A DNA stretch of 25,376 bases from a bacterium (GTDB taxonomy: Bacteria; JAHJDO01). The number at the start of each line of letters is the position of its first letter. Within the stretch, counting starts at the first letter, position 1. Below are positions 8,971 through 25,376 of the stretch, piece after piece. The translations under genes were made by a program, and so were the position numbers. The stretch is from the NCBI GenBank assembly GCA_043824255.1, contig JBDRTG010000001.1:1-25376 (forward strand), given 5' to 3'. The notes beneath the pieces were generated by a model. The model was not told where the DNA came from and did no database searches. It saw only the letters and a list, made by a program, of their open reading frames with translations.

Positions 8971-9017
8971 TACAAAACGTATCTTGCAGTACGAACACCC
9001 TCCGAAAATCTTTCATC

Positions 9018-9048: not shown

Positions 9049-9078
9049 ATTTAAAATCAAGAAATTTCCCATTTTTTG

Positions 9079-9107
9079 TTGACGTCTCAAGCAATTCTAA
9101 GTATAGT
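9079..9107 (+). promoter_or_regulatory. Promoter for the NYN gene
   Basis: TTGACG-17 nt-TATAGT, 44 nt upstream of ATG 9152. Confidence 0.65.
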
Positions 9108-9151
9108 AAAAAGCGACAGCAAATGTTCAATGATTAACATTATAGCCAATT

Positions 9152-9655
9152 ATGGAAAATATTTTAATTAATCAATCGGTAGCTATACTATGCGATGGGA
9201 ACAATATTGAACGGAGTATCCATGAACTCTCTAAAACAAAAAACGCAATGATCAATTTTGATAAGTTGATCCCGAAATTGCTAAATGATAGAGGATTAAA
9301 CAGGCTAATTTATTTTAGGGAAGGTAAGTCCATATCTTCGAAATTCGCTGATAGATTACATGAAAACTATTATGGCTCTGTTATTCCGTGTCATAAATCT
9401 GCCGATATTCCACTTTCTATCAAAGCAACGCAACTCGCTTCAAAGGTTGACACCATTATCATTATGTCAGGGGATTCGGATTTTGTGGATTTGGTTTTGC
9501 ATCTGAAAGGGGAAGGTGTAAGGGTAGAAATTGCTGCGGTAAGAGAAACAGCTGCCAGGATATTAATTGATGAAGCAGACTATTTTCATGAAATAACCAA
9601 AGAAGATTGGTTTGTATATAAATCACCGAGAGATACAAAGGTGGAAAGAAGTTAA
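9152..9655 (+). CDS. NYN-domain (LabA/DUF88, PIN-like) protein, putative ribonuclease
   Basis: 'ILCDGNNI', 'KSADIPL', 'IIMSGDSDF', 'GVRVEI', 'EADYF' acidic motifs of the NYN/LabA family. Confidence 0.9.
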   Translation: MENILINQSVAILCDGNNIERSIHELSKTKNAMINFDKLIPKLLNDRGLNRLIYFREGKSISSKFADRLHENYYGSVIPCHKSADIPLSIKATQLASKVDTIIIMSGDSDFVDLVLHLKGEGVRVEIAAVRETAARILIDEADYFHEITKEDWFVYKSPRDTKVERS

Positions 9656-9732
9656 GAAGTTTATAATAAGTCGTTGGAGCAGTGCTCGTTGGCATCAGAT
9701 AAGTTACAGCCTAACCAATTGAAAATTGTTTT

Positions 9733-11067: not shown

Positions 11068-11080
11068 TAGAACTTCCTCC

Positions 11081-11608
11081 CTAGAGTTTCTCTACAACTA
11101 TCTGGTCATTTGTATATATGCATATTGAAGCAGCTATTAAAATGGCTTCCTTAACGATTTCTGCTGCTGAGAGGTCTGAATATTTTATTAGCGCTTTAGC
11201 TGCAGCAAGCGCATAAGGACCTCCTGAACCTATGGCTAATACTCCGTCACTTGGTTCAATAACATCCCCATTGCCAGATATAAGAAGCGAATAATCCTTA
11301 TTGACAACAGCGAGCAAAGACTCCAGTCTTCTTAGAACTCTATCTGTGCGCCAGTCTTTTGCAAGCTCAATTGCAGCTCTCTGAAGATTGCCGCTATGCT
11401 CCTCCAGCTTTTTCTCAAACCTTTCAAAAAGAGTAAAAGCATCTGCTGTTGCTCCTGCAAAACCAACCAGCACTTGGTCGTTATATAATCTGCGCAGTTT
11501 TTTTGCATTCTGCTTCATAATAGTTTCGCCCTGTGTAACCTGACCATCACCGCCTATAGCCACTTTTCCCTTATGTCTTACAGTAAGAATTGTAGTTGAG
11601 CGTGTCAT
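11081..11608 (-). CDS. hslV: ATP-dependent protease peptidase subunit HslV
   Basis: 'STTILTVR' (Thr nucleophile after short propeptide), 'GDGQVT', 'GFAGATADA', 'IGSGG', 'ICIYTN'; GGAGG RBS. Confidence 0.98.
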
Positions 11609-11870: not shown

Positions 11871-11943
11871 TGTCATTGCGAACCGAAGGTGACGTTATCT
11901 CGCCTTTTTGGATTGCTTCGTTGCCATGCTTCTCACAATGACA
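11871..11943. repeat. REP/RPE-like palindromic element, intergenic
   Basis: TGTCATTGCGA ... GATTGCTTCG ... TCACAATGACA; terminal inverted repeat 10/11. Confidence 0.75.
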
Positions 11944-11950
11944 TTTTTGT

Positions 11951-11988
11951 ATTTTTTGTTGACATTTCAGGCAATTTTGGGGTACGGT
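11951..11988 (+). promoter_or_regulatory. Possible promoter for the 12031 gene, homologous to the NYN promoter
   Basis: TTGACA at 11959-11964; 11951-11978 is 24/28 identical to 9071-9098; -10 (TACGGT, 18-nt spacer) is weak. Confidence 0.4.
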
Positions 11989-12030
11989 AGCGTTAAAATA
12001 ACACCAAGTGTTCAAGGAGGAGATGACCTT

Positions 12031-12657
12031 ATGCTTGAAATAGTGGGCAAGAAAATTGATCTTGAGAAATCGGAACTTCTATACGATGAGCCGATCTCAA
12101 ATGAATGTTTCTCTGCCAATTGGATCATCCACAGCGGTGATTGGCAGGTTCAGGACGAGTGGCTTACAGGGAAGAATCCTGCCAATTGTCCGGGGATGAT
12201 ATTTCTGAAGGGGGATTATCCGGGAAATGTCATAGTGGACTTCGAAGCGCGAACGGTCTTACCCTGCACGCATGATATCGATTTCATGTGGAACGGCAGT
12301 TGGGACAAAGATAAGAATCAACGAGGCCCTGCCTACGTTGCAGGTTTAGAGGGATGGTGGACTGGGAAAGTGGGCATTGAAAAGTCTCCTGACTACAAAC
12401 TCACCGCCGCAACTCCATTGTTTGATTTTGACCCCGGACGAACCTACCACATTCAAGGGGGGAGTATTGACGGTCATTGCTTCATATTCGTAAATGGGCA
12501 ATTGGCTCTTGAAGTGACCGATCCTGACCCCATCGACTCCCAGAGATTCACAAAAGTAGGATTTGAAGCGTATTGCAGCCATATCCAGATTCGGAATGTG
12601 AAAATCATGCGCCTCGCTTGGCATCCTGTCCCTCTTAAGTACTCGCCAGAATTCTAG
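12031..12657 (+). CDS. Hypothetical protein, probable concanavalin/LamG-like beta-sandwich
   Basis: AGGAGG RBS before ATG 12031. Pattern 'GDWQVQDEWLTG...GNVIVDFEA...IFVNGQLALEVTDPDPI...KVGFEAYCSHIQIRNVKI' resembles DUF1080/DUF1961-like folds. Confidence 0.65.
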   Translation: MLEIVGKKIDLEKSELLYDEPISNECFSANWIIHSGDWQVQDEWLTGKNPANCPGMIFLKGDYPGNVIVDFEARTVLPCTHDIDFMWNGSWDKDKNQRGPAYVAGLEGWWTGKVGIEKSPDYKLTAATPLFDFDPGRTYHIQGGSIDGHCFIFVNGQLALEVTDPDPIDSQRFTKVGFEAYCSHIQIRNVKIMRLAWHPVPLKYSPEF

Positions 12658-12727: not shown

Positions 12728-14005
12728 ATGCGATTTAAAGAACTGGGACTTATTGAGCCTATCTTAAGAGCTCTCAAAGAAGAAAAGTATACTGAGCCTA
12801 CATCAATACAAGTTAAGGCTATTCCACTCATTCTAAAAAGAAATGATGTATTAGGCAGTGCTCAAACCGGGACAGGTAAAACTGCGGCTTTTGCTATTCC
12901 AATCCTGCAGCACCTCTTTCTTGATCGTCAGCATAATAACAGCCCGCGCAAAATTAAGTCGCTCATCGTAACTCCTACACGCGAATTGGCGATTCAGATC
13001 GCAGAGAGCTTTACTACGTATGGAAAATTCACTGGGATCAAAAACACAGTCGTTTTCGGTGGTGTGAAGCAAGGTGCACAAACGAATGCCCTTCGCAAAG
13101 GTGTCGATATTCTCGTTGCAACGCCTGGAAGGCTTTTGGACTTAATAAATCAGGGCTTCATCAGATTAAATGACGTCGAATACTTCGTGCTGGACGAAGC
13201 TGACCGGATGCTCGACATGGGGTTTATCAATGACATTCGAAAGATCATCGCCAAATTACCAACGAAACGGCAGTCTTTGTTTTTTTCAGCAACAATGCCG
13301 GAAAATATTGTAGAACTTTCGAGGAAAATTTTGAGAAATCCTATGAAAGTTGATGTAAGTCCCATTTCCTCTACTGCTGAAACTATAAAGCAATATCTGT
13401 ATTATACCAATAAATCAAGTAAGAAAGATTTGCTGCGTCATATACTTCAGTATCAAAAGATCGATCAGGTATTATTGTTTTCCAGAACAAAACGTGGTGC
13501 TGACAAAATAGATCGTGACCTAAAAAAACATAAGATTAAATCAGCAGCTATACATGGTGACAAAGAGCAAAATCAAAGGCAAAAAGTCCTGGCGCAATTT
13601 AAAGCCGGAGAAATTAGAGTGTTGGTGGCAACAGATATTGCCGCAAGAGGTATTGACATTGACAAACTAAAATATGTCATCAATTATGATATACCTAATA
13701 TAGCCGAAACATACGTCCACAGGATAGGCAGATCCGGTAGAGCAGGGGAAGAAGGTAATGCTATATCCCTTTGCGAACCTGAAGAAAATGCTTATATAAA
13801 AGATATCGAAAAATTGATAAACCAGAAAATAGAACTTGTCAAAGAAAACCCTTATCCTCAAACAGAAAAGCCAATGACAGAAAACGAAAAGAAGGAATGG
13901 GACAAAGAGAAACAACAAAGAAGACAAGAATACTTTGCCACGAAGAAACAAAATCCGGCTAGGTCAAACTCATCAAGGTTTTCCAGGCGATCCAGAGGAC
14001 GCTAA
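12728..14005 (+). CDS. DEAD-box ATP-dependent RNA helicase (RhlE-like)
   Basis: Q motif 'PTSIQ', 'AQTGTGKT', 'PTRELA', 'TPGRLLD', 'LDEADRMLDMGF', 'SAT', 'HRIGRSGRAG'; basic C-terminal tail. Confidence 0.97.
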   Translation: MRFKELGLIEPILRALKEEKYTEPTSIQVKAIPLILKRNDVLGSAQTGTGKTAAFAIPILQHLFLDRQHNNSPRKIKSLIVTPTRELAIQIAESFTTYGKFTGIKNTVVFGGVKQGAQTNALRKGVDILVATPGRLLDLINQGFIRLNDVEYFVLDEADRMLDMGFINDIRKIIAKLPTKRQSLFFSATMPENIVELSRKILRNPMKVDVSPISSTAETIKQYLYYTNKSSKKDLLRHILQYQKIDQVLLFSRTKRGADKIDRDLKKHKIKSAAIHGDKEQNQRQKVLAQFKAGEIRVLVATDIAARGIDIDKLKYVINYDIPNIAETYVHRIGRSGRAGEEGNAISLCEPEENAYIKDIEKLINQKIELVKENPYPQTEKPMTENEKKEWDKEKQQRRQEYFATKKQNPARSNSSRFSRRSRGR

Positions 14006-14059
14006 CACATACTAAAAACTGCTGGCAAATGATAGTATCATGTGATACTAATTTAAATA

Positions 14060-15313
14060 ATGTTGCAAAATCAATATGACATTGTAATCATTGGCGCAGG
14101 ACCGGCTGGTTTGATTGCGGCTATTGAAAGCTGTAAACCTTCCGCAAAAATATTAATTCTTGAAAAGATGCATAACCCTGCGCTGAAACTAAGGATTTCA
14201 GGAAAAGGACGATGCAACATTACCAACGATGCTGAATTAGAGGATTTTATTTCGCATTTTGGCAAAAACGGAAGGTTCCTGAAGTTTGCTTTTGCGAATT
14301 TTTTTAATACAGATCTTATTAAATACTTTGAAAAGCTGGGTGTTCAGTTTAAGCTTGAACGAGGAGGGCGTTACTTTCCTGAAAACGATGATGCAGGGGA
14401 GATTGCAAACGCTTTGCTTAACAAAGTAAAATCGCTAAATATTCCCATTTCTACTAATTCAGAAGTAATCAACATTACAAAATTACCTGATAAAAAATTT
14501 ACTGTTACAGTTAAAAAGAATACTCATCGTATTCAAATAAAAGCAGATAAAGTTGTGCTTGCAACCGGAGGAAAATCATATCCCAGAACTGGTTCGACCG
14601 GAGCAGGATTTAAACTGGCCTCTCAGCTTGGACATGCAATTACCCCTATTTCTCCATCTATTGTGCCTATTGAAACTAAAGGCAGTACTGCAAAAAAACT
14701 TCAGGGATTAAGCTTAAAAAATGTAAAAGCGCAGGTATGGTGTGGGAACAAGAAGGTTGATGAACGGTTTGGAGAAATGCTGTTTACTGATTTTGGCCTC
14801 TCCGGCCCGATAATTCTTTCTTTGAGCAAAACTGTTGTAAAGCTTGTTGATGATAAAGAAAAGGTGTTTATCTCCATAGATTTAAAACCTGCTCTTGGCC
14901 ACAAAATGCTTGAGCGAAGAATAATAAGAGAAATAACTGAGCACAGCAAACAAGGTTTTAAGAATTTACTAAAAAAACTACTGCCGGGGAAACTAGTTCC
15001 TGTATTTATCGAGAAATTAAAAATTTCAGGAGAAAAGCAACTGAGCCAGATTAATTCTGAAGAACGCAAGAAACTGAGGATACTGCTGAAAGAGTTCCGA
15101 TTTGAAGTGACAGGTTACAGGTCATTTAATCATGCCATTGTAACATCCGGCGGAGTCTGCATAAAAGAGATCAATCCCCAAACAATGGAATCGAAACTTG
15201 TCAAAGGCCTATATTTTGCAGGTGAAATTATTGACGTTGATGCTGATACAGGGGGATTTAATCTGCAGGCTGCTTTTTCAACAGGATGGATTGCGGGCAG
15301 AGCTATAAAATAG
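14060..15313 (+). CDS. HI0933/YhiN/BaiN-family NAD(P)/FAD-dependent oxidoreductase
   Basis: 'IIGAGPAG', 'ISGKGRCNITN', 'LATGGKSYP..GSTG.G', 'GLSGP', 'GLYFAGE', 'TGGFNLQAAFSTG'. Confidence 0.95.
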   Translation: MLQNQYDIVIIGAGPAGLIAAIESCKPSAKILILEKMHNPALKLRISGKGRCNITNDAELEDFISHFGKNGRFLKFAFANFFNTDLIKYFEKLGVQFKLERGGRYFPENDDAGEIANALLNKVKSLNIPISTNSEVINITKLPDKKFTVTVKKNTHRIQIKADKVVLATGGKSYPRTGSTGAGFKLASQLGHAITPISPSIVPIETKGSTAKKLQGLSLKNVKAQVWCGNKKVDERFGEMLFTDFGLSGPIILSLSKTVVKLVDDKEKVFISIDLKPALGHKMLERRIIREITEHSKQGFKNLLKKLLPGKLVPVFIEKLKISGEKQLSQINSEERKKLRILLKEFRFEVTGYRSFNHAIVTSGGVCIKEINPQTMESKLVKGLYFAGEIIDVDADTGGFNLQAAFSTGWIAGRAIK

Positions 15314-15330
15314 GACATTTCTAAATGTGC

Positions 15331-15359
15331 TTGACATAGATTTGATACAAAGCTACAAT
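15331..15359 (+). promoter_or_regulatory. Sigma70-type promoter of the catabolic operon
   Basis: TTGACA-17 nt-TACAAT. Confidence 0.8.
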
Positions 15360-15360
15360 A

Positions 15361-15378
15361 AACCAACTATATAGTTGG
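15361..15378. promoter_or_regulatory. Putative operator
   Basis: Perfect 16-bp palindrome CCAACTATATAGTTGG (15363-15378) between the -10 box and the RBS; related sequence upstream of the TetR gene. Confidence 0.6.
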
Positions 15379-15386
15379 AGGAGAAT

Positions 15387-16370
15387 ATGAAGAGTTCAGG
15401 GATGGGAATCTATGTCCCAAAGTTAAGTGATAGGCTTCGCGGAAGACAGATTCCACATATTGGGGTTCTGAACAGGGAAGAATTAGAAGAAGTAATTGCT
15501 CTTGGAGAGTGGTTTCGAGAGAACCGTTATGATGCGACTTATGTGGATCTTCTGAAGGGGCGTGTGCAGTGTTTGTTGTTTGTGTACGAATCCACAAGAA
15601 CCAGGCTTGGGTTCTCAGCAGCCATGGCACAGCTGGGCGGATCCACAATGTATATGGCAGCAAAAGATACCCAGATGGGAAGAGGTGAATCAATCGTAGA
15701 TACAGCACGTGCTATTGACCAATACATTGATGTGTTTTCAGCCCGACTCTGGAAGCATGAGGATATCGAGCTGGCTTGTAAGAATATGAGTGTACCTGTT
15801 CTTAATGCGTGCACACCCCTTGACCATTCTACGCACGTAATTGGTGAATTAATGGCAATTAAGCAGGCTAAAGGCAAGCTTGAGGGGCTTAATCTGGTCT
15901 ATACCGGTATGGCAAGAGGTATATTGCATTCATTTATCAGGGTTTGCCCAGTTCTTGGAATTAATCTTACTCTGGCGGTTCCCGCTTCTTATGCAGAAAC
16001 TATTAACCAAGATATTTTGGCAGAGGGTAAGAAAAAGGCAGAAATAGCTAAAACACGACTTGAGGTTTGTAGTGACTTAAAAGAGGCTGTAAAGGATGCT
16101 GATTTTATTCAGGCAAGTACTTTGATACGGAGTATGCTTGCTGGTGAACAATCGCCAGAAGAAAAAAAAGTTAAAATACCTGAGTGGACAGTAACAGATG
16201 AAATCCTTAATTGTGCAAGAGCTGACGTGTTGTACAGTCATTCTGGTCCTGCTCGCAGAGGTGTTTGCGTCACTGATGAAGTTATGGATGGACCAAGGTC
16301 AATTATTCCTCAAGAGGCAAAAAATGCCATTTATTCCAAGAAGGCTCTGTTGGCTTTGATAGTAAAATAG
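15387..16370 (+). CDS. Ornithine/aspartate carbamoyltransferase-superfamily protein with atypical active site
   Basis: 'ESTRTR', 'GESIVDTARA', 'VPVLNA', 'VTDEVMD' match the OTCase fold; HPxQ, HCLP and ENR motifs altered. Start at ATG 15387 after GGAGGAG. Confidence 0.85.
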   Translation: MKSSGMGIYVPKLSDRLRGRQIPHIGVLNREELEEVIALGEWFRENRYDATYVDLLKGRVQCLLFVYESTRTRLGFSAAMAQLGGSTMYMAAKDTQMGRGESIVDTARAIDQYIDVFSARLWKHEDIELACKNMSVPVLNACTPLDHSTHVIGELMAIKQAKGKLEGLNLVYTGMARGILHSFIRVCPVLGINLTLAVPASYAETINQDILAEGKKKAEIAKTRLEVCSDLKEAVKDADFIQASTLIRSMLAGEQSPEEKKVKIPEWTVTDEILNCARADVLYSHSGPARRGVCVTDEVMDGPRSIIPQEAKNAIYSKKALLALIVK

Positions 16371-16382
16371 AAAGGGAGTTTT

Positions 16383-17435
16383 ATGGATAAAGTTAGAATT
16401 GGTATTGTTGGATCAAAATTTGCCGCTGATTTCCATTGTGATTCATACAGCAGAGATAGAAATGCTGAAGTAGTAGCAGTTGCAGCAATTGACAATCTTG
16501 AGGAGATTTCCTCAAAGTGGAATATTCCCAGCACCTATGAAGACTATAAGGAAATGTTAAAACGCGATGACATTAGTCTTGTCTCTGTCTGTGTACCAAA
16601 TTTTCTGCATCATGATGTAGTTATTGCTGCAGCAAAGGCAGGAAAGCATGTAATTTGCGAAAAACCCCTTGCCACTACTATAGAAGATGCAAAAGAAATG
16701 ATTGAAGCATGTAAAAAAGAAAGAGTAAAACTGTTTTACGGTGAGGACTGGTGTTTTGCTCCTGCGCTTATGCGTACAGTCGAGATTATTAAAGAAGGAG
16801 CCATCGGTGAGGTTCTCTATGTTAAGGCAAAGGAGACTCATAATGGTACTCACAGTGCGTTTGCCAAGAATGCAAAGTATTGTGGAGGTGGCTCTCTAAT
16901 TCATCTTGGTATTCATCCGATTGGATGGATTCTTCATTTTCTTGGTAATCAGGGTAAGAACAGGGTTATTGAGGTAATTGGTAAGACAAACGCCGGTGGA
17001 GAAGATAACTATGTTCACAAGGATAATAGTGGAGAAGACTGGGCCTTAGGAATTATAAAGTTTGCCAATGGCGAGCATGCATTTGTGGAAGGGAATTATA
17101 TTACTGTAGGTGGTATGGATGATAGAGTTGAGATTTATGGTACTGAAGGTGTGATCAAGGTAGATATGACATTTGGCTCGCCTGTAAGTGTATATAGTAG
17201 GCGTGGGTATTCATATTGTATTGAAAAGGCTGATAATACACTCGGCTGGACCAAACCAGCCGTTGATGAATTCTACAATCTGGGCTATGTTAGTGAGCTC
17301 GCATATGTTGTTGAGTGTGTGTTAAATAATAAGGAGCCCATCTATGATCTCAGTGGTGAAATGGGGCTGAAATGCATAGAGATTATTCAAGCGATGTACC
17401 AGTCAAACAGAGAAGCGAAAACAGTCAAAATATAA
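16383..17435 (+). CDS. Gfo/Idh/MocA-family oxidoreductase
   Basis: 'RIGIVGSKF', 'PNFLH', 'GKHVICEKPLA', 'GGGSLIHLGIHPI'. Confidence 0.92.
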   Translation: MDKVRIGIVGSKFAADFHCDSYSRDRNAEVVAVAAIDNLEEISSKWNIPSTYEDYKEMLKRDDISLVSVCVPNFLHHDVVIAAAKAGKHVICEKPLATTIEDAKEMIEACKKERVKLFYGEDWCFAPALMRTVEIIKEGAIGEVLYVKAKETHNGTHSAFAKNAKYCGGGSLIHLGIHPIGWILHFLGNQGKNRVIEVIGKTNAGGEDNYVHKDNSGEDWALGIIKFANGEHAFVEGNYITVGGMDDRVEIYGTEGVIKVDMTFGSPVSVYSRRGYSYCIEKADNTLGWTKPAVDEFYNLGYVSELAYVVECVLNNKEPIYDLSGEMGLKCIEIIQAMYQSNREAKTVKI

Positions 17436-17447
17436 TTATAAAAAAGC

Positions 17448-18683
17448 ATGTTGCAAATGGCAAAATTTACACAAGAGGATTGTTTGATGCCCTTTGAGAT
17501 ACCAGGGCTCAAGTTCAGAAACCAGTTTATTGTCGCTTCAGGTCCAACTACTAAACATATAAGTCAAATTATTGAAGCTGAACGCTGTGGCTGGGGCGCT
17601 GCTAGTCTGAAGCTTGCTATAGAACCTGCTCCTTATATCAATCGCAAGCCAAGATACAAATTCTGGAAGAAGGAGGGCTATCTTGCATTTTCTGCTGAGA
17701 CCAGACTAATTCCTGAGCAGATGCTAAAACTTCTTGATCAATCCCGCAAAAAGACAAGAGAGATTAAACTTATTGCCAATATCGCCTATGTTGGTAATAA
17801 GGGTATGGCGGGTTGGGTTAAGATGGCAAAGAAATGTGTTGATGCTGGTGCTCATGCTATTGAGCTTAATATGTGCTGCCCAAATATGTCATTTAATTTA
17901 GAGGTCTCAGGCGAGGATAATCATACACTACAAAGCGGTGCCAGTCTTGGACAAAATGCAGAGATTGTTGGTGCCGCGACTAGAATTATCTCAGAAGCTG
18001 TTGATGTGCCAATAGTTGTAAAACTGACACCTGAAGGAGGTAATATTGGTCAGGTAGCCAGGGCCTGTTTTGAAAATGGCGCCCGTGTTGTTGGCACTAC
18101 TGCTAATCGTCTGGCTATTCCTGAATTTGATATTGCTAATCCGGCTAAAGGACCATATAGATTGCAGCATGAGCCATCAATGTCATGTTTCTCTGGTGAG
18201 TGGATAAAACCCTTGTCCAGACGTGATGTTTTTGAAATGCGAAAAGCTTGTGGATCCGAAGCGATTATTCTTGGCACAGGCGGAATCTGTGATTATGTTA
18301 GTGCTGTTCAGATGATGATGTGCGGTGCTGATATGATTGGCATCTGCACTGAAACAATGAAACGCGGTTTTGATTTTTTGCCTGATCTTATTAAGAATAT
18401 CAAGAAATTCATGGCTGAGCATGGCTATAAGTCTTACAGGGGTTTTCGTGATAAGGAGGTTGAGGCAATTTATACAGCTGATAAACTTACATTGGATGAT
18501 GCGTATGCTCAGGTTGATCCTGAGTTGTGTACAGGCTGCGGCAGATGCATGAAAATAGGTCATTGCTATGCTATCTCAATAGTTGATAAAAAAGCTGTTG
18601 TGAATCCCGAGGATTGCACAGGATGTTCCACATGCATGGACTTCTGTCCAGCTAATGCAATTTCTTTTGTAAATAAAAGATGA
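17448..18683 (+). CDS. Dihydropyrimidine dehydrogenase PreA-like / dihydroorotate dehydrogenase-family flavoprotein with C-terminal 2x[4Fe-4S]
   Basis: 'FRNQFIVASGP', 'ELNMCCPN', 'PIVVKLTP', 'GTGGI', C-terminal CTGCGRC and CTGCSTCMDFCP. Exact start uncertain (17448/17457/17487). Confidence 0.85.
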   Translation: MLQMAKFTQEDCLMPFEIPGLKFRNQFIVASGPTTKHISQIIEAERCGWGAASLKLAIEPAPYINRKPRYKFWKKEGYLAFSAETRLIPEQMLKLLDQSRKKTREIKLIANIAYVGNKGMAGWVKMAKKCVDAGAHAIELNMCCPNMSFNLEVSGEDNHTLQSGASLGQNAEIVGAATRIISEAVDVPIVVKLTPEGGNIGQVARACFENGARVVGTTANRLAIPEFDIANPAKGPYRLQHEPSMSCFSGEWIKPLSRRDVFEMRKACGSEAIILGTGGICDYVSAVQMMMCGADMIGICTETMKRGFDFLPDLIKNIKKFMAEHGYKSYRGFRDKEVEAIYTADKLTLDDAYAQVDPELCTGCGRCMKIGHCYAISIVDKKAVVNPEDCTGCSTCMDFCPANAISFVNKR

Positions 18684-19687
18684 GCAAAAAAGTTCTTGTT
18701 CTAGCAACAAGTTTTCTGGATTCTTTAATCTCTCATCCTGCGAAGGAAGGGCAGGCTAAGAAAATGCTGGATGAATTATCGGAGAATTCAAATGGAGAGA
18801 TTGAAATAATTTATCGCTGCGAAAGAAATCCTGAAGAACCCTTAAAAGTAGAGGAACTTAAAAATATTACTGCGGTAATTGCTGATCTGGAAAAATATGA
18901 CAGGGAATTGTTATCTCAAGTGGGTATAAAAGCAGGAGGTTCTTTAGAATTGATAGCAAGATATGGAATAGGTTATAGCTCAGTGGATGTTAAGGCTGCC
19001 ACTGATTATAGAGTTATAGTTACAAACTGCCCGGGATGTAATGCCCTACCCACTGCAGAATGGACACACTCTACAATTCTTGATGTAGCTGGACGACGAA
19101 TTTCTCATTACAGGACTGCCAGTCAGGGCAAACCCAAAGAGGGGCTTTCTCGTCTGGATATCTCAGGCAAGATTCTGGGAATAATTGGAACTGGGTTGAT
19201 AGGTAAACTAGTGCTCAAATTAATGAATGGATACGAGATGAAGGTTATTGCTTATGATCTCTATCCGGATAAAAACTGGGCAACCCAAAACAATGTTGAA
19301 TATATGGAGCTGAATAAATTATGCCAGACCGCAGATATTATAACCCTGCATGCAGCAGCTAATGAAACTATTATCAGGAAAGAACAGATTGATTTAATGA
19401 AAGATACAACGATTTTAGTGAATTGTGCGCGAGGAATTTTGGTGGATTACAAGGCTGCTTACAATTCAGTCAAAGCAGGAAAAATCTGGGGTTATGGGGT
19501 TGATGAAATATGGCAGGATAAGAGTCTATCTTTAGAAGGGTTGAATATCATTGTCAGCCCACATGTGGGTTCAGATACAGATAAGGGGAAAATCGGTATG
19601 CAAATAATGTCAACCCAGGCAGTGATTGATTTTTTAGAAGGGAAGATACCAAAGCATGTAATTAATAAAGAGGTGCTGCAATTATGA
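18680..19687 (+). CDS. D-isomer-specific 2-hydroxyacid dehydrogenase (SerA-like)
   Basis: 'ARYGIG', 'GIIGTGLIG', 'ITLH', 'VNCARG', 'SPHVG'; ATGA overlap with upstream gene. Confidence 0.9.
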   Translation: MSKKVLVLATSFLDSLISHPAKEGQAKKMLDELSENSNGEIEIIYRCERNPEEPLKVEELKNITAVIADLEKYDRELLSQVGIKAGGSLELIARYGIGYSSVDVKAATDYRVIVTNCPGCNALPTAEWTHSTILDVAGRRISHYRTASQGKPKEGLSRLDISGKILGIIGTGLIGKLVLKLMNGYEMKVIAYDLYPDKNWATQNNVEYMELNKLCQTADIITLHAAANETIIRKEQIDLMKDTTILVNCARGILVDYKAAYNSVKAGKIWGYGVDEIWQDKSLSLEGLNIIVSPHVGSDTDKGKIGMQIMSTQAVIDFLEGKIPKHVINKEVLQL

Positions 19688-21327
19688 ATAAAAAACAAAT
19701 TCTTTTAACAAGAAAAGGACTGGAGAATCCCGGATGGAAGGATACAGGAGTTTGTCTGCCTGAATTTTCCATGGATGATATGTTGAGTAGAACCAAAGTA
19801 TATCCCACATGGATTCATATAGCGCCCGGGAACCTTTATGTAGCAGAGATTGCTCCTATCCAGCAAGCATTACTTGAATCTGGAGAGGCAAGAGAAGGAA
19901 TTATAGGAATAGAGACATGGGATGAGGAGATAGTGGACAGAGTTTATCATCCCAGAGATAACCTTCGAATAAGTATAGCAATGTCTTCAAAAGGAGAAAA
20001 TCAGATAAAGCTTATTGCTTCTACTGCAGATGTGCTGTATGCAGATACTTCCAGACAAGGGCAGTGGAAGAGAACATTAGAATATTTTGCCAAACCTTCT
20101 TTGCAAATGGTTAGTGTTACTTGCACAGAAAAGGGTTATAAAATCCACGATTCTCAGGGAAATGTTTATCCTGTGATATTGGAAGATATAAAGAATGGAC
20201 CAGGAAAAGCTACACATCTCATGAGTAAGATAGCGAGTTTTGCTTATCATCGATATAAGAATGGTAGTACTCCAATAGCATTTATTAGTATGGATAATTG
20301 CTCAAAAAACGGGGAAAAACTATTTGATGCGGTTAGCTTCATTGCTAAAGAATGGATTTATACCAGCAAACTGGTAGAAAAGGAATTTCTAAGATATTTA
20401 GAAAGCGAGAAGGTTTCTTTTCCATGGACCATGATTGATAGAATAACCCCCAGACCATCTTCGGGAAATGTTGAATTGCTTAAAAGCAAGGGAATTGAAA
20501 ACATGGATATCATAAAAACGCGCAAAGGAACATTTGCAGCGCCTTTTGTGAATACTGAGCCCATATCTTACTTAGTGATAGAAGATAATTTTCCCAATCG
20601 AAGACCGCCTCTGGAAAAAGCAGATCAATCCAAAAATAGAGTAATTCTTGTGAATAGTTCTGAAGCAGTAGATAAGTGTGAAAAAATGAAACTTGGAACC
20701 TGCCTTAATCCTATTCATACCACTTTAGCAACTTTTGGCTGTCTCTTAGGATATGATTATATCTTTCAGGAGATGAATGATCCCTTATTGAAAGAGCTGG
20801 TGTATAGACAGGCTTATGAGGAAGGTCTGCCGGTAGTAGATAATCCTGGAGTAATTAATCCTGAGGAATTCCTGAGGCAGGTATTAGAAGAGAGGTTAGT
20901 TAATCCTAATATTCCTGATACTCCTCAGAGAATAGCTACAGATACATCCCAAAAAGTAGGGGTCAGGTATGGAGGCACAATAAAAGCATATGGAAAGAAT
21001 GCCAAAAATTTAAAATATATTCCCTTGGCCATTGCTGGATGGTACCGATATTTACTGGGCATTGACGATAGAGGAAAACCATTTGAATTAAGTCCTGATC
21101 CTTTACTTAAAGAACTTAAAAAATATATAACTGGAATTGAACTGGGAAAACCAGAGACTTTAGGGAATAAGCTAAAACCTGTTCTCTCTAATAAGGAGAT
21201 ATTCAGTTTGGACCTTTACTCTGTTGGCATTGCCCAGAGGGTTGAAGAATATACAAGAAGAATGATAACCGGTATTGGAGCTATTAAAAAGACATTACAA
21301 AGTGTTTTAGGGGAGGAGAGAAAATGA
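19684..21327 (+). CDS. Mannitol dehydrogenase-family protein (fructuronate reductase UxuB-like)
   Basis: 'VTCTEKGY', 'SMDNCSKNG', 'FPWTMIDRITP', 'EKMKL..CLNPIH', 'DTPQRIATDTSQK'. Confidence 0.9.
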   Translation: MNKKQILLTRKGLENPGWKDTGVCLPEFSMDDMLSRTKVYPTWIHIAPGNLYVAEIAPIQQALLESGEAREGIIGIETWDEEIVDRVYHPRDNLRISIAMSSKGENQIKLIASTADVLYADTSRQGQWKRTLEYFAKPSLQMVSVTCTEKGYKIHDSQGNVYPVILEDIKNGPGKATHLMSKIASFAYHRYKNGSTPIAFISMDNCSKNGEKLFDAVSFIAKEWIYTSKLVEKEFLRYLESEKVSFPWTMIDRITPRPSSGNVELLKSKGIENMDIIKTRKGTFAAPFVNTEPISYLVIEDNFPNRRPPLEKADQSKNRVILVNSSEAVDKCEKMKLGTCLNPIHTTLATFGCLLGYDYIFQEMNDPLLKELVYRQAYEEGLPVVDNPGVINPEEFLRQVLEERLVNPNIPDTPQRIATDTSQKVGVRYGGTIKAYGKNAKNLKYIPLAIAGWYRYLLGIDDRGKPFELSPDPLLKELKKYITGIELGKPETLGNKLKPVLSNKEIFSLDLYSVGIAQRVEEYTRRMITGIGAIKKTLQSVLGEERK

Positions 21328-22472
21328 CGGAGAAAATAATTAAGTATACCGAAATTAAATCTGCAGATAGTTGTAAGTATGACGGATTATCGTTAGGAGA
21401 GGTTATGTTAAGATTTGATCCCTATGATGTGCCTACTGCTCAGGCTCGGGAAATGAGAATCTTTCAGGGTGGAGGAGAAACCAATGTTGCTTGTGGTCTA
21501 TCTTATACTTTTGGCTTACGTACCGGAGTATTGACTGCCTTAGTTGATGATGTAATAGGTAAAAATATTGGGAATCAATTTAGAGCAGCGGGAGTGGATA
21601 CCAGCAAAATTATTTGGTTTAATACTGAGAATGATAGTTCCAGATTCTCTACGGATAAAAAGGGTACTTTGATGAATGGAATCAATTTTACTTATACAGG
21701 GAAAGGAGTTATTCCATCCGATACCTGTTATTACAGAGGGCATTCTGCAGTAAGAGAATTGAAAGAAGGTGATTTTAACTGGGATAGGATATTTGGAGAG
21801 GAGGGAGTAAGGGTATTTAATACAGGTGGTATTTATACATTAATTTCACATTCCTCTTCAGGGCTTGCTATAGAGGCAGTGAAAAAAGCAAATGAGTATG
21901 GCACTTTCGTGTCTGCTGATTTGAACTATAGGTCAAAAGTAGAACCAGATAAAAGCAAAGCTCAGCAGATCAATCAGAAAATCGCACCTCTCTTAGGCTT
22001 CTTGGTAGGTAATGATTCTGATCTAAGTGATGCTCTAGGTTACAAGACCCAAGTTGCCAAAAATGCACCTTTTGATGAATGGATAGATGCTTATAAGAAA
22101 ACAATTGCGCAGGTGGCAAAAGATTTTCCAAACTTAAGTTTAATTGGTACTCAATGGCGAGGGGCTACTAACGCTGATCTGATAAGCTGGGCTGCAGTAT
22201 TATACGATGCTTTAGCAGGGAACTTTTATGTATCAGCTCTCAGAAAGGATGTTCCAATCAAGGACCGTACTGGTGGAGGAGATTCTTATGCCTCCGGGGT
22301 TTTAGCTGCATTGTTAAAGGATAAAGACCTACAGACCGCTGTGGAATGGGGGGCATCCCATGGTATGCTGGTCCAAGAAACGCCTGGAGATATTACTATG
22401 ATGGATCAGAAAGCAGTAGAAGCGGAAGTAAAAAGAGTTCTGGCTGGTGGAGGAGTTAAGGCTTCCAGATAA
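21324..22472 (+). CDS. kdgK: PfkB sugar kinase, 2-keto-3-deoxygluconate kinase-like
   Basis: 'SLGEVMLRFDP', 'GGGETNVA', 'DLNYRSK', 'DRTGGGDSY', 'TPGDITM'. Confidence 0.85.
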   Translation: MTEKIIKYTEIKSADSCKYDGLSLGEVMLRFDPYDVPTAQAREMRIFQGGGETNVACGLSYTFGLRTGVLTALVDDVIGKNIGNQFRAAGVDTSKIIWFNTENDSSRFSTDKKGTLMNGINFTYTGKGVIPSDTCYYRGHSAVRELKEGDFNWDRIFGEEGVRVFNTGGIYTLISHSSSGLAIEAVKKANEYGTFVSADLNYRSKVEPDKSKAQQINQKIAPLLGFLVGNDSDLSDALGYKTQVAKNAPFDEWIDAYKKTIAQVAKDFPNLSLIGTQWRGATNADLISWAAVLYDALAGNFYVSALRKDVPIKDRTGGGDSYASGVLAALLKDKDLQTAVEWGASHGMLVQETPGDITMMDQKAVEAEVKRVLAGGGVKASR

Positions 22473-22502
22473 AATCTTAATAATTTTTGAGGAGAATTAA
22501 AA

Positions 22503-23243
22503 ATGTCAGATTATCAAAGAGATAGAATTCGGGTAGATAGAGTTATCCGCAAGAGTGGAATAGTAGTGGTGATGAATAAGAATCATGTTAAGGAACCAGA
22601 ACATATGATTACTACTATGTTGGAGATTTATAAGGCAGGGTATGTAGCCGAGTGTACGTTTCGGATTGAAGAAGCTATCTTAAAAGAAGGAATGCAAGAA
22701 CTGACAAAGAAAAGAGCAGAATGTCCTAAAGATAACCCTTTTATACTTGGAGTTGGAAGTGTAATCAATCCAAAAGAATTAGAATCAGCAATAGACATGG
22801 GATTTGATATGATTGTAGCTCCTGCCAACGTTATGGGAGGTTACGGTGAGGGAAAAGACTTTGTGAAGCTCACCCGGGAAGCAAATGTGTTTTCAGCACC
22901 TGCAATACTTAGCCCTACAGAGTTGCAGTATTTCATCGAAAGAGATGATGAATTGGAACCAGATGCAATTAAGGTTTTCCCTGCAAGTGTTCATGGACCA
23001 AGCGGGATCAAGGCTTTACTTGCTCCTTATGTCAGAGAAAGACATGCTAGTCGAATTATAATGCCTACAGGTGGAGTAGATTATGAAACTGGGCCCAAGT
23101 ATCAAGAAGCGATTCTTTCCAGGGGATATACTCCTGTTCTGGGTATGTCTGCTCCTCTTAAATTAGTGGAAAAGGAAGAAAAGCCAGGAGATGTTGAAAC
23201 AGTCAGAGGATCTTTGGCCCAGTTCAAACAAAAATTCAGCTGA
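22503..23243 (+). CDS. KDPG/KHG aldolase-like (Eda/KdgA family), divergent
   Basis: 'ECTFR', 'LGVGSV', 'SPTE', Schiff-base Lys motif 'KVFPA', 'MPTGGV'; follows the kdgK-like gene. Confidence 0.8.
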   Translation: MSDYQRDRIRVDRVIRKSGIVVVMNKNHVKEPEHMITTMLEIYKAGYVAECTFRIEEAILKEGMQELTKKRAECPKDNPFILGVGSVINPKELESAIDMGFDMIVAPANVMGGYGEGKDFVKLTREANVFSAPAILSPTELQYFIERDDELEPDAIKVFPASVHGPSGIKALLAPYVRERHASRIIMPTGGVDYETGPKYQEAILSRGYTPVLGMSAPLKLVEKEEKPGDVETVRGSLAQFKQKFS

Positions 23244-23277
23244 TTGGCAATAAGTTTGGCACATAGGTTGTAATAAA

Positions 23278-23293
23278 ACTAACTGAATGGTTT
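23278..23293. promoter_or_regulatory. Putative TetR operator
   Basis: AACTAACTGAATGGTT immediately before the TetR ATG; 12/16 identical to AACCAACTATATAGTT at 15361. Confidence 0.4.
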
Positions 23294-23299
23294 GAATAT

Positions 23300-23911
23300 A
23301 TGCAGGAGAGAGTTAAAAGAACGAAATCTAAAATTCTACAGGCTGCACAGCAGGAATTTTCCGATAAAGGGTTTCATGGCGCAAGAATGGATAGTATTGC
23401 AGAAAAAGCAGGGATAAATAAACAACGCATATATGCCTATTTCAAAAATAAGGAGAACCTGTTTTGTGAAGTGCTGAAAGGCTGCTTCCAACTGATAGCG
23501 GACCATGAACGCGTTTTTACGGATCTGCTTGAGAAAGATATTCCTCATCTTGAGGATAGAATACTGCGTTATTATATGTCTTTTCACGAAAAATATCCTC
23601 ATTTCTGGCGGCTTATTGCATGGGAGAATCTGGATGGAGGAAAACGTTCTAATACTATTAGGGGTATTAGAGAGCAACCGTTCAGACATCTGAAAAATTT
23701 ATATCAAAAAGGTCAAAAGCAGGGGATATATAAAAAAGAGGTTTCTTTTGAAGCATTCATATTCCTTTTATCTGCTGTGTCATTTTTCTATTATTCCAAT
23801 CAGAAAACTATGTCTCAAACTCTTAATGTGAATTTATTTAATACAAAAATTCAAGATAAATTAGTTCGGGAAATTTTGCTTCTTTTACATCCACAAAGTG
23901 GAAAGAGCTAG
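23300..23911 (+). CDS. TetR/AcrR-family transcriptional regulator (NicS/RutR-like C-terminus)
   Basis: 'ILQAAQQEFSDKGFHGARMDSIAEKAGINKQRIYAYFKNKENLF'; 'FWRLIAWENL'. Confidence 0.95.
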   Translation: MQERVKRTKSKILQAAQQEFSDKGFHGARMDSIAEKAGINKQRIYAYFKNKENLFCEVLKGCFQLIADHERVFTDLLEKDIPHLEDRILRYYMSFHEKYPHFWRLIAWENLDGGKRSNTIRGIREQPFRHLKNLYQKGQKQGIYKKEVSFEAFIFLLSAVSFFYYSNQKTMSQTLNVNLFNTKIQDKLVREILLLLHPQSGKS

Positions 23912-23913
23912 CT

Positions 23914-24351
23914 ATGGGTAAGCAAGTTGATATAGCAAGTCTTTCAGTTGCACATATTATAGACCGATACGGTGTTAAATTGACGCTGCTGATTGCGTGC
24001 GCAATCTTATGTTTGAGTTTTTTGATCATGGCTCAAAATTCTGTTATTTGGCTGATTATAGCCACATTTCTCATAGGGACAGGTTCTGGTATTGCGCTTC
24101 TTTCGTTCGTTGTTGAGATTCAGAAAGTGGCTAAAGGTCTGCCTGGAAAATTTATATCCTTATACTTCATGTTGAGCGGTATCATGGGTATTGTGGCAAC
24201 AGGTGTTGGCGCTATAGTAGTAGCCACTTCCATAATAGGGATTGGTCCATTGATGGTTATTGGTGGCACGATTGCTGCATCTGGGGGTGTAATAACGTTA
24301 CGATCTCCCGAAGGAAATATACCTATAAAGGCAAAGGATGCATTTTTTTGA
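23914..24351 (+). pseudogene. MFS transporter fragment (about 4 TM segments)
   Basis: Motif A-like 'HIIDRYGVK' followed by hydrophobic helices; 145 aa versus ~400 aa for a full MFS protein. Confidence 0.55.
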
Positions 24352-25198
24352 AACCATGACACAAATTAGAATAGAAAGGATGAAGAAAAAAGTCAATTAT
24401 TACCGGCAACATAATGCAAATCTTCTGGCTGAAGTTCCAGCGGAAGCCTTTAACGGTTGGGGCAAGAAAGAGATAGAGATACCGATAAAAGAGACTGCAT
24501 TTTTAATTATGCATTCATGGAACTACGGGATTTCTCCGAAGTTAGAGTATGGTCCGAATACCAGATTCAAAGGACTCTGGAACGTAGTTGAATATGTCCC
24601 ACGAGCAATTGAGATCACAAAAAGGGTAGTAGGCCCTCTTTTAGAGAAGGTTCGTTCCTCCAAATTAACCATTATTCATGTGGGCAGCTCAGAAAATTAC
24701 TGCAAAAATTATCCCGGTTATCAAAAAGCCAAAGCCTTATCTGGTGACCCTTCGCCAATTTTAGAGGGAGCAGTAAAAAAGAATTGGAGCAAGATAAAAA
24801 CTGTGGAACGGTGTGGCGAAGAGAATCTTCAGAACATCCAGAATGCCCAGAAGTATGTAGATTTTCCTAACATTACCCGGCCACGAGGAAATGAATGGGT
24901 AGTTATCAATAGTCATCAGTTGAATGCTTTATGCCGGCGTCTAAAAATATGGAACTTGATTTATACTGGTTTTGCTATTAACTGGTGTCTTTTTGAGAGC
25001 CCGGCAGGAATGATAGATATGAGTCGACTTGGCTATGGTTGTTCCACCATCAAGGAGGCGGTAACAGCGGTAGAAAATGATTGGACTGCTCGTGAAGAAT
25101 TGTGTAAGAAATTAGCACTTTGGAAAATTGCCATGTCCTATGGTTATGTTATAAATTTAGAAGATTTTCTCAAAGCATTGGAAGGGGAAACTAAATAA
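24338..25198 (+). CDS. Isochorismatase-like cysteine hydrolase family protein
   Basis: 'ETAFLIMHSW', 'LTIIHV', 'LIYTGFAINWCL' (Cys nucleophile position), 'EAVTAVE'. Start may be 24356 or 24380. Confidence 0.75.
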   Translation: MHFFETMTQIRIERMKKKVNYYRQHNANLLAEVPAEAFNGWGKKEIEIPIKETAFLIMHSWNYGISPKLEYGPNTRFKGLWNVVEYVPRAIEITKRVVGPLLEKVRSSKLTIIHVGSSENYCKNYPGYQKAKALSGDPSPILEGAVKKNWSKIKTVERCGEENLQNIQNAQKYVDFPNITRPRGNEWVVINSHQLNALCRRLKIWNLIYTGFAINWCLFESPAGMIDMSRLGYGCSTIKEAVTAVENDWTAREELCKKLALWKIAMSYGYVINLEDFLKALEGETK

Positions 25199-25298
25199 AA
25201 TTTGAAAAAGAGGTGCATAGAACAAAAATGCCAAAAAAGCTAAAAAAGTTAACTTTTGAAAAATAAACTATAACAATTTAAAGAGGGAGGATTAGGAA

Positions 25299-25376
25299 AT
25301 GTTAGATAAAAGAAGGAAAATTTGTGGAAGCAGGAACTCATTCAACTATGATTTTCTGTGCGTGTTTAAAAACCTT
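25299..25376 (+). CDS. Possible start of next gene (partial)
   Basis: GGGAGG RBS 8 nt before ATG 25299; frame open to the window end (26 codons). Confidence 0.35.
   Translation, partial: MLDKRRKICGSRNSFNYDFLCVFKNL

Follow-up and report, generated by a model that had tools for sequence, protein, structure and literature searches.

The nearest described chemistry to the route that we propose here is the ong pathway of Pseudoalteromonas, in which, according to the accessible part of the source, N-acetyl-glucosaminate (GlcNAc1A, an oxidized chitin monomer) is converted to KDG-6-P, acetate, and ammonia by the D-aminoacylase OngB, the pyridoxal phosphate (PLP) deaminase OngC, RidA, and KdgK, with a GH20 enzyme upstream (PMC9537276). 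Our subject is a run of ten genes, g1 to g10, in a 25,376-nucleotide stretch of bacterial DNA (contig JBDRTG010000001.1; "the window" is this whole stretch) from the genome of an uncultured groundwater bacterium (G000; 2.0 Mb in 51 contigs, 87% complete). As in the ong pathway, so far as that part of the source describes it, an acylated amino-aldonate would be deacylated and deaminated to 2-keto-3-deoxygluconate, and a PfkB kinase, a KDPG aldolase, and a repressor are common to both. The families of OngB, OngC, and RidA, however, were not among the window genes in Pfam and NCBIfam scans; the window has instead a Gfo/Idh/MocA dehydrogenase (g2), a DPD-like flavoenzyme (g3), a D-isomer-specific 2-hydroxyacid dehydrogenase (2-HADH; g4), and a transcarbamylase-like enzyme (g1).

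Other described systems share parts of this set. In the arginine deiminase, agmatine deiminase, and reductive uric acid pathways, a transcarbamylase is run phosphorolytically so that a kinase can make ATP, which is the logic that we propose for g1; in the uric acid pathway, the carbamoyltransferase is preceded by a flavin reductase and ring-opening amidohydrolases (PMC12507026). Unlike these routes of ureide and arginine catabolism, the kinase in g1 operons is acetate or propionate kinase and the partners are sugar enzymes, and carbamate kinase was not found in the six g1-bearing genomes searched. PreA/PreT and mammalian DPD resemble g3 in the DHO_dh FMN barrel, the N-x-x-C-P stretch, and the 4Fe-4S clusters, as well as in the GltD-like FAD/NAD(P)H domain present in most g3 relatives, but the fused relatives have the reverse domain order from DPD (DHO_dh first), and g3 itself is without the NAD(P)H domain. 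Finally, the UxuB/KdgK/Eda module of hexuronate catabolism has counterparts in the window or in related loci, namely, a mannitol-dehydrogenase-family or SDR reductase, a PfkB kinase, and a class I pyruvate aldolase; however, g5, g6, and g7 miss the corresponding cut-offs, and UxaC and UxuA were not found in the 87% complete genome.

A literature search, with most subscription journals and supplements outside its reach, found no description of the gene set, of the clade to which g1 belongs, or of the pair formed by g2 orthologues (GFO below) and DPD-like genes; the preliminary description of this DNA had likewise not recognized the combination as a described pathway. The system is real and conserved, it is built from known superfamilies, and apparently it is uncharacterized. 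The GFO and DPD-like pair, together with g1, marks a recurrent and apparently uncharacterized route of anaerobes that degrade polysaccharides in sediments, groundwater, and digesters. Were that route solved, the systematic misannotation of the g1 clade would be corrected, a DPD-like flavoenzyme would gain a nonpyrimidine function, and an energy-conserving deacylation step would possibly be added.

A transcarbamylase-like enzyme with an altered carbamoyl site

Judged by its motifs and scores, g1 is not an ordinary ornithine carbamoyltransferase (OTCase) or ATCase. The fold is that of the family: the AlphaFold model (pLDDT, 88.5) matches the OTCase of P. furiosus (1a1s) in Foldseek with TM scores of 0.86 to 0.90. 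As far as the sources at hand describe OTCase, PTCase, ATCase, and YgeW, g1 shares with them the fold, STRTR, and an H-x-G-P variant also seen in some ATCases, and it departs from them at HPxQ, GDGNN, and DxxxSMG, in scoring below the family cut-offs, and in belonging to a separate clade. Every NCBIfam cut-off was missed (228 bits against 306 for the best OTC model and 225 against 281 for another). STRTR, the SxRT phosphate-binding motif, is retained in 58/58 members of the clade. The catalytic Arg and His are retained in g1; the MGRGE Arg, the HPxQ His, and the Arg that follows HSGP are all in place.

A review describes HPxQ as the place where transcarbamylases chiefly bind the carbamoyl moiety (PMC4581275). 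In the g1 clade, this stretch reads D-H-(S/T)-T-H (H-S-T-H in g1 itself), with H147, T149, and H150 invariant in all 20 aligned sequences, and His stands at the Gln position in the six commonest variants of the clade, which account for 41 of its 58 members. HxLP/HCLP reads HSGP and GDGNN reads TGMARG, each in 58/58 members, and DxxxSMG reads S-x-x-x-R-S-M in g1. The available text of the same review indicates that the HPGP variant of HxLP occurs in real ATCases (PMC4581275), and the genome's own PyrB has it; both this PyrB and the genome's ArgF (a paralogue on contig C47) carry the canonical motifs. Of the marks of an ornithine carbamoyltransferase, GDGNN, DxxxSMG, HCLP, and a curated score, g1 thus has none. 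Relatives of g1 are annotated "ornithine carbamoyltransferase" throughout the sources, a name that the motifs contradict.

In the tree, the g1 clade is monophyletic (100/100 support) on a long stem. Two farther clades, at 41 to 49% identity, have Arg-bearing motifs yet keep Gln at the HPxQ position in 18/19 members; the change of the carbamoyl-reading residue is therefore specific to the g1 clade. In g1, then, the phosphate and carbonyl site is kept, the Gln for recognition of the carbamoyl NH2 is gone, and Arg residues stand in place of the ornithine site.

The database search returned 1,403 relatives, of which the best 120 are 73 to 92% identical and span Planctomycetota, Kiritimatiellia, Lentisphaerae, Firestonebacteria, and unclassified metagenome-assembled genomes. 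The distribution is patchy: g1 is present in one of eight other genomes of the window's genus, and homologues occur in 6 of 301 sampled Planctomycetota, five of them in g1's clade. We considered and set aside two further ideas about g1. Fusion to additional domains was not seen in the long frames over homologues (up to 600 amino acids), which show just two OTCase domains, longer forms lying outside the database search; and a role as a substitute for phosphotransacetylase was rejected, with two PTA_PTB genes in the genome, one of them adjoining ackA. The ATCase catalytic subunit reportedly accepts acetyl phosphate, as old kinetics papers are said to describe, although our literature search brought no confirmation.

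The remaining enzymes and their nominal identities

For g2, the closest solved structures are an unnamed dehydrogenase (6jw6), an aldose-aldose oxidoreductase, and the C-glycoside 3-oxidase DgpA (E values of 1e-28 to 1e-30). The best NCBIfam matches of g4, phosphoglycerate dehydrogenase and glyoxylate reductase, are both under cut-off.

The names given in the preliminary description to most of the other enzymes were not supported, and neither was that of an ordinary carbamoyltransferase for g1. It had read g3 as PreA, a reductase of pyrimidine rings; g3 reaches 195 bits against the PreA profile, the cut-off of which is 335. The protein aligns with residues 534 to 840 of pig DPD, and N-x-x-C-P, the stretch that includes the catalytic Cys, is preserved; N141 and C144 correspond to DPD N668 and C671 and are conserved in the family. 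At the places of DPD N609 and N736, which we take to be pyrimidine-binding Asn residues, there is no conserved residue among 18 family members; the residues that are conserved in this set include an Arg (R69) and two Glu. No PreT was found in the operon; outside it, the genome has one GltD-like gene. The protein g3 is therefore without the curated score, the Asn residues, and the PreT partner of a PreA or DPD. The unconserved Asn places make a pyrimidine substrate for g3 unlikely, and a carboxylate-bearing unsaturated or imino compound seems plausible. Most g3 relatives are fusions of 880 to 909 amino acids with Fer4_20 and Pyr_redox_2 domains.

Nor were g5, g6, and g7 supported as UxuB, KdgK, and KdgA of the hexuronate route. 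Against the fructuronate reductase UxuB, g5 scores 118 bits (cut-off, 603), and its best match in the PDB is a mannitol 2-dehydrogenase. By tblastn, g5 was found in 0/40 related loci with flanking sequence, its place elsewhere being held by an SDR that passes the cut-off for D-mannonate oxidoreductase. In NCBIfam, g6 comes closest to a KHG/KDPG aldolase-kinase fusion, of which it matches the kinase portion (174 bits; cut-off, 700), and models of KDG kinase give 20 to 93 bits, with cut-offs of 400 to 440; its orthologues (61 to 67% identity) adjoin g1 homologues in loci L042 and L045. For g7, the score against TIGR01182 (Eda) is 56 bits (cut-off, 156), and the best PDB match is the KDPG aldolase of Thermotoga (E, 2e-11). 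It contains AIKVFPAS, presumably the Schiff-base Lys motif, and has orthologues 67 to 72% identical in L042 and L119.

The description of g10 as an isochorismatase-like amidase survived in part. The protein itself has no Pfam or NCBIfam match, but PF00857 is found on 6 of the 120 homologues listed, several of which are named nicotinamidase-related amidase, and the family profile matches the ureidoacrylate amidohydrolase RutB (E, 5e-4) and, less well, biuret hydrolase (E, 0.035) in the PDB. The Cys of N-W-C-L is invariant in 21/21 family members. Like g5, g10 was found by tblastn in 0/40 related loci with flank.

A core that recurs in other genomes, with g1 as an add-on

For comparison, we collected 5 loci from genomes and 80 from metagenomes (137 pattern matches, 87 confirmed, 80 kept). 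A g1 homologue of at least 65% identity is present in 65 of them, 40 with flanks totaling 4 kb or more; merging at 97% or more nucleotide identity of g1 left 53 groups, 30 with flank. Open reading frames (ORFs) in the loci were called by a greedy rule that is sometimes antisense in high-GC DNA; neighbors were hence counted by tblastn with family representatives, whose names come from Pfam and NCBIfam scans (Table 1).

Table 1. Gene families found near g1 homologues
Family	Loci with flank	Deduplicated groups
GFO (g2 orthologue)	19/40	14/30
DPD/PreA	16/40	12/30
2-HADH	12/40	9/30
Mannonate-oxidoreductase-type SDR	10/40	8/30
Eda-type aldolase	8/40	4/30
NagB-like deaminase	6/40	3/30
Creatininase family	5/40	4/30
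PfkB kinase	4/40	4/30
TetR	4/40	3/30
Acetate kinase	3/40	2/30 (plus L020, short flank)

Nitrogen-type genes (g1 and amidases) and sugar-acid genes occur together elsewhere, in shuffled orders and in several phyla. In many loci, an orthologue of g2 (51 to 88% identity) is next to g1, the DPD-like gene, or both, and g4 homologues recur with those of g2 and g3 in loci with and without g1. Four arrangements illustrate the shuffling: Eda-SDR-AckA-g1-GFO-PreA-2HADH in L036; PfkB-NagB-like-g1 facing Eda-2HADH-SDR-GFO-DPD in L003; TetR-DPD-g1-creatininase-GFO in L047; and, in L042, a g7-type aldolase, a g6-type PfkB kinase, and a creatininase-family gene facing g1. The Eda, SDR, and acetate/propionate kinase of these loci pass curated cut-offs; the NagB-like neighbor is under its cut-off but keeps the stretch GHIAFNEP. 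Acetate/propionate kinase adjoins g1 on the same strand in L020, L023/L061, and L036 (median gap, 18 bp), and the NagB-type deaminase is next to g1 in the L003/L004/L024/L032 types (median gap, 16 bp). Four kinds of amidase sit beside g1 homologues elsewhere. Other neighbors are M20 peptidases (L019, L020, and L030), a PIG-L deacetylase, a PHP phosphatase, and DUF6786 (L024 and L032), an SGSH-type sulfatase (L038 and L076), xylose-isomerase-like TIM barrels (L021 and L051), and, in some loci, adjoining MMPL and MFS genes. In L016 (1182 to 2711), a 509-amino-acid protein with two creatininase-family domains (278 bits) directly follows the g1 homologue.

The nearest relative, L001, is from the same genus and bears out the caveat that the operon might be a mosaic. 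It shares the TetR gene, g1, g2, and g4 with the window at 83 to 91% identity but has other accessory genes where the window has g5 to g7, and in place of the PreA-type gene at 17448 to 18683 it has, within 4787 to 9722, an 882-amino-acid DHO_dh+Fer4_20+Pyr_redox_2 fusion that is 49% identical to g3, followed by a 748-amino-acid protein of no known family; an FAD oxidase is a further addition. The genes flanking this segment are 87 to 91% identical to those of the window. A module has thus been swapped within an otherwise conserved operon, and from these differences we take the operon to be modular and rearranged by recombination. For the 748-amino-acid protein (c110), the Atlas shows no relative with a name, and the only leads, both weak (0.88 to 0.89), are DUF2264 and ulvan lyase.

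The same picture emerges from whole genomes. We surveyed 301 Planctomycetota genomes for the DPD-like gene (query, the first 352 residues of the L001 fusion; E ≤ 1e-50) and the g2 orthologue (E ≤ 1e-80); the former was found in 19, the latter in 17, and both in 16. All five Planctomycetota genomes with a member of the g1 clade are among these 16 (Fisher P of 2e-7, the relatives not being independent), and the other 11 have no g1. Since g1 is absent from so many of these genomes, it must be dispensable for the core, and the nesting of one set within the other defines the division: the core is g2-g3-g4 plus the aldolase, and g1 is an add-on. Consistent with this, the g1-free loci L117 to L119 keep GFO, DPD/PreA, 2-HADH, and an aldolase together; the aldolase of L119, 67% identical to g7, lies beside a GH20-domain protein.

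NagA was found above its cut-off in 7/16 genomes with both GFO and DPD, compared with 50/285 others (P = 0.017, relatives again not being independent). Acetate kinase is present in all six g1-bearing genomes searched (G000 and five others), while carbamate kinase was found in none of the six, G000 having nothing above cut-off. On contig C32 of G000 (about 6653 to 9661), pta and ackA are immediately preceded by a canonical nagB-type deaminase gene, which ties the deamination of amino sugars to acetate formation here as well.

What the operon may degrade

From the gene content, motifs, fold, neighborhoods, and genome co-occurrence observed above, we infer a possible substrate and order of steps. 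Our proposal, which we offer tentatively and which could well prove wrong as a whole, is that the operon, shuffled horizontally and controlled by a TetR regulator, serves the catabolism of an N-acylated amino sugar or sugar acid, whose phosphorolytic deacylation yields an acyl phosphate. The sugar would be oxidized and converted, without a classical dehydratase, to a 2-keto-3-deoxy acid, which would be phosphorylated and then split to pyruvate and a triose; g2, g3, g4, and g7 would form the carbon core, assisted by the g6 kinase and the g5 oxidoreductase. We imagine that g1 strips the N-linked acyl group by phosphorolysis (amide + Pi -> amine + acyl phosphate) and that acetate kinase would then use the acyl phosphate to make ATP. 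The hydrolase g10 and the amidases of related loci would provide a hydrolytic alternative for the deacylation, and g8, sitting on the palindrome, would keep the operon repressed until it is released by the substrate or an intermediate.

As substrate, an N-acylated 2-amino sugar or the corresponding aldonic acid seems most likely. Compounds of this kind, N-substituted amino sugars or amino-aldonates, are suggested by the PfkB and pyruvate aldolase module, by the lack of a dehydratase or uronate isomerase, and by the amino-sugar neighbors; the amino-sugar color comes from the NagB-like deaminase, PIG-L, GH20, the SGSH-type sulfatase, and the enrichment of NagA. A dehydratase-independent route would be needed because neither UxuA nor UxaC was found in the genome. 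Phosphorolytic N-deacylation by g1 would fit the retained phosphate and carbonyl site, the lost Gln, and the Arg residues at the ornithine site; acetate kinase and the NagB-type neighbors would take its two products, and carbamate kinase was not found in the six g1-bearing genomes searched. An acetyl group is somewhat favored over a carbamoyl group, given the His substitution and the neighboring kinase; carbamoyl is possible, given the Gln of the sister clades and the likeness of g10 to RutB.

Several points weigh against this proposal. Its functional steps are read from family membership and neighborhood, and no result identifies the substrate. By our own estimate, converting a plain N-acetyl amide to acetyl phosphate with Pi is energetically uphill and would need an activated amide or a strong downstream pull. 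The role of the DPD-like g3 is not explained by the route. The Gln in 18/19 sister-clade members suggests an ancestry in carbamoyl phosphate chemistry, and the His that replaces it is still polar; in addition, the closest solved relatives of g10 act on ureido compounds, which would fit a carbamoyl rather than an acetyl group. In 13/30 g1 groups, neither GFO nor DPD is nearby, and the 11 genomes with both GFO and DPD that lack g1 count here as well. As for a possible replacement of NagA by g1, NagA was found in 1/5 g1-bearing and 6/11 g1-free genomes with GFO and DPD, a nonsignificant difference (P = 0.31). The RNA contigs over the operon, described below, are thin, may include DNA carry-over, and give no proof of cotranscription. 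As for an OngB-like deacetylase beside distant relatives of g1, the candidate was dropped: the Amidohydro_3 protein of L089 matches only uncharacterized hydrolases.

A ureide-type substrate, the idea of the preliminary description, is one alternative. The compound would be a cyclic ureide or else a sugar acid bearing a ureido or N-carbamoyl group; g3 would reduce the ring, the amidase would open it, and g1 would be a true catabolic carbamoyltransferase, yielding carbamoyl phosphate for ATP or for ArgF/PyrB. The reductive uric acid pathway follows the same logic in the portion of the source available (PMC12507026). The family features preserved in g1 (STRTR, the MGRGE Arg, the HPxQ His, and the Arg that follows HSGP), the carbamoyl-binding Gln of the sister clades, the closeness of g10 to RutB and biuret hydrolase, the weak match of the TetR N terminus to RutR, and the creatininase-family, M20, and Amidohydro_3 hydrolases that recur beside g1 all fit such a route. 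It has to contend, however, with the His that replaces the HPxQ Gln throughout the common variants of the g1 clade, with the failure to find carbamate kinase in the six g1-bearing genomes searched while acetate kinase occurs in three operon types, and with the unconserved N609 and N736 places in the g3 family. To our knowledge, there is also no abundant natural ureido sugar acid. We regard this explanation as unlikely.

An equally unlikely explanation is that g2 to g7 form a nitrogen-free sugar or sugar-acid route, of the keto-aldonate, uronate, or inositol type, and that g1 and g10 are unrelated passengers in a mobile operon. A PfkB kinase, a 2-HADH, a TIM-barrel isomerase, and an MFS transporter recall a 2-ketogluconate operon, and a creatininase-family neighbor weakly matches the inositol enzyme IolN (E, 3e-9). 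The g1-free genomes, the 13 groups in which g1 stands apart from both core genes, and the swapping of modules within one genus between L001 and the window would all be expected if g1 were a passenger. What argues against mere transit is that all five g1-clade Planctomycetota genomes have both core genes, that g1 lies inside operons and between core genes in varied orders (L036, L047, L003, and L010), and that in the window the promoter and presumed operator drive g1 first.

A biosynthetic cluster is more doubtful still. Here, g1 would carbamoylate or acylate an amino sugar acid and g3 would cyclize and desaturate the product, as in pyrimidine synthesis, to give a small exported metabolite. The order of an ATCase-like and then a DHODH-like gene does mimic pyrimidine biosynthesis, the 3' end has a TetR regulator and a transporter remnant, and MMPL and MFS genes adjoin g1 in some loci. 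Yet the core is repeatedly accompanied by a kinase and a pyruvate aldolase, acetate kinase and the NagB-like deaminase are partners of a catabolic kind, a conserved cyclase or ligase is lacking, and the transporter of the window is just a fragment. That two known pathways, hexuronate Uxu/Kdg and reductive pyrimidine degradation (PreA), simply lie side by side is scarcely credible: family-level names are all that speak for it, every equivalog cut-off was missed, UxuA, UxaC, dihydropyrimidinase, and PreT are missing from the operon, and g5 is absent from 40/40 related loci.

Returning to phosphorolytic deacylation of an amino sugar derivative, one can envision a stricter version, in which the g1 clade no longer handles carbamoyl phosphate at all and phosphorolyzes the N-acetyl or N-acyl group of an amino sugar acid, with the DPD-like enzyme acting on a sugar-derived substrate. 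We would not expect this version to hold, the chances being rather poor. If it were true, the fold would gain a reaction class new to it, and glycan-degrading anaerobes would gain a new site of substrate-level phosphorylation, with the acetyl phosphate from deacetylation giving ATP through acetate kinase; an ordinary catabolic carbamoyltransferase acting on a new amine would be a modest extension of a known family.

Layout and expression of the operon

The ORF listing confirmed ten tightly spaced, co-oriented genes on the + strand at 15387 to 25198 (Table 2), with gaps of 12, 12, 30, 56, 2, and 28 bp (range, 2 to 56 bp) and three 4-bp ATGA overlaps, at g3/g4, g4/g5, and g5/g6.

Table 2. Features of the operon region (window coordinates)
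Feature	Position	Strand	Length	Basis or remark
Sigma-70-type promoter, TTGACA-17 nt-TACAAT	15331-15359	+		Promoter scan, 11/12 matches
Perfect palindrome CCAACTATATAGTTGG	15363-15378	.	16 bp	Between -10 box and ribosome-binding site
g1, OTCase-fold transcarbamylase-like enzyme, separate clade	15387-16370	+	327 aa	Pfam OTCace_N + OTCace
g2, Gfo/Idh/MocA NAD(P)-dependent sugar dehydrogenase	16383-17435	+	350 aa	Pfam
g3, DHOD/DPD-like FMN domain + two 4Fe-4S motifs, PreA-type short form	17448-18683	+	411 aa	Pfam DHO_dh, Fer4
g4, D-isomer-specific 2-hydroxyacid dehydrogenase	18680-19687	+	335 aa	Pfam
g5, long-chain mannitol-dehydrogenase-family oxidoreductase	19684-21327	+	547 aa	Pfam
g6, PfkB-family sugar or sugar-acid kinase	21324-22472	+	382 aa	Pfam PfkB, 69 bits (cut-off, 25.8)
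g7, divergent KDPG/KHG-type class I aldolase	22503-23243	+	246 aa	Pfam Aldolase, 44.6 bits (cut-off, 27.8)
Degenerate second copy of promoter/operator module	23244-23299	+		Three-way alignment, 77% mean column identity
g8, TetR-family regulator	23300-23911	+	203 aa	Pfam TetR_N + TetR_C_29
g9, membrane protein	23914-24351	+	145 aa	MFS_1, 27 bits (below cut-off of 33.4)
g10, distant isochorismatase-like cysteine hydrolase (amidase)	24380-25198	+	272 aa	Homologues + family profile

The one strong promoter of the preliminary description is present ahead of g1, in the 73-bp gap that separates it from the preceding flavoprotein gene. Promoter-like sites as such are not in excess in 14000 to 25376 (27, compared with 31.9 +/- 6.5 in shuffled sequences); its credibility comes from its position and from its conservation in the same-genus locus L001, not from the count of sites. 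The promoter-plus-palindrome module of the window aligns with a module 5' of the TetR gene in L001. With as many as 3 mismatches allowed, the palindrome matches nowhere else in the window, and 12/100 shuffles gave a match; related half-sites lie, by alignment, at the same place in L001 and 5' of g8, and a GGAGGA ribosome-binding site follows it ahead of g1. With the TetR_N helix-turn-helix and ligand domain of a TetR repressor in g8, and with the inverted repeat in the start region of the promoter, the palindrome is the presumed operator of g8, a prediction from these sequence features.

That this promoter serves all ten genes is less clear. Because a degenerate copy of the module precedes g8, it is possible that there are two transcription units, g1 to g7 and g8 to g10, in place of one; this copy fails the rule for the -10 hexamer in the promoter scan.

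In one metatranscriptome run (X2) of the study from which this DNA probably comes, 11 contigs of at least 99% identity cover parts of 16/30 bins of the region at depths of 0.3 to 17, and pieces span the g6/g7, g7/g8, and g9/g10 junctions; a second run (X7) gave no contigs over the region. The DNA depth of the organism in that study is about 500, and DNA carry-over into the RNA contigs is therefore possible. Small shares also turned up in sediment, marine, and cold-seep runs, to which we attach no weight. One RNA contig, at 23088 to 23304, runs from the 3' part of g7 through the spacer to the start codon of the TetR gene at a depth of 35, the highest seen (2 to 7 for the other pieces); it could be a stable 3' fragment, a TetR leader, or an accident of assembly. 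An Rfam scan of the window found no RNA family at gathering score.

At the 3' end, g8 is 83% identical to the TetR protein at the head of the L001 operon, and its N terminus matches RutR weakly. The match of g9 covers positions 48 to 172 of the 347 in the MFS_1 profile, and g9 is probably a decayed remnant of an MFS transporter. For g10, an alternative start at 24338 would give 286 amino acids; since the window's own protein, as entered in the database, spans 95% of this longer ORF, the start is probably at 24380.

Other genes of the window

The flavoprotein gene preceding g1 ends 18 bp ahead of the -35 box, and no homologue was found in the 85 related loci (tblastn, E ≤ 1e-10). It belongs to the HI0933/aminoacetone-oxidase family and lies in a region (9152 to 9655, 9733 to 11608, and 12728 to 15313) that also encodes an NYN-domain protein, hslU-hslV, and a DEAD-box helicase of the RhlE type. 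A 249-amino-acid ORF with a TTG start at 11908 to 12657 (+), a candidate gene, has no Pfam or NCBIfam match and partly overlaps ORFs on the opposite strand.

On the - strand, two tandem genes (1454 to 5218 and 5218 to 8970) encode proteins of about 1,250 amino acids each, with many TPR repeats and the domains DUF3857 and DUF3858; just the second has a transglutaminase-like core. A LacI-family regulator gene lies downstream of them (311 to 1366). At the other end of the window, over 25236 to 25376, contigs from the DNA runs come in short pieces with loose ends at depths of 809 to 1,294, compared with about 490 to 520 (1.6- to 2.6-fold), which suggests a repeat at the contig end.

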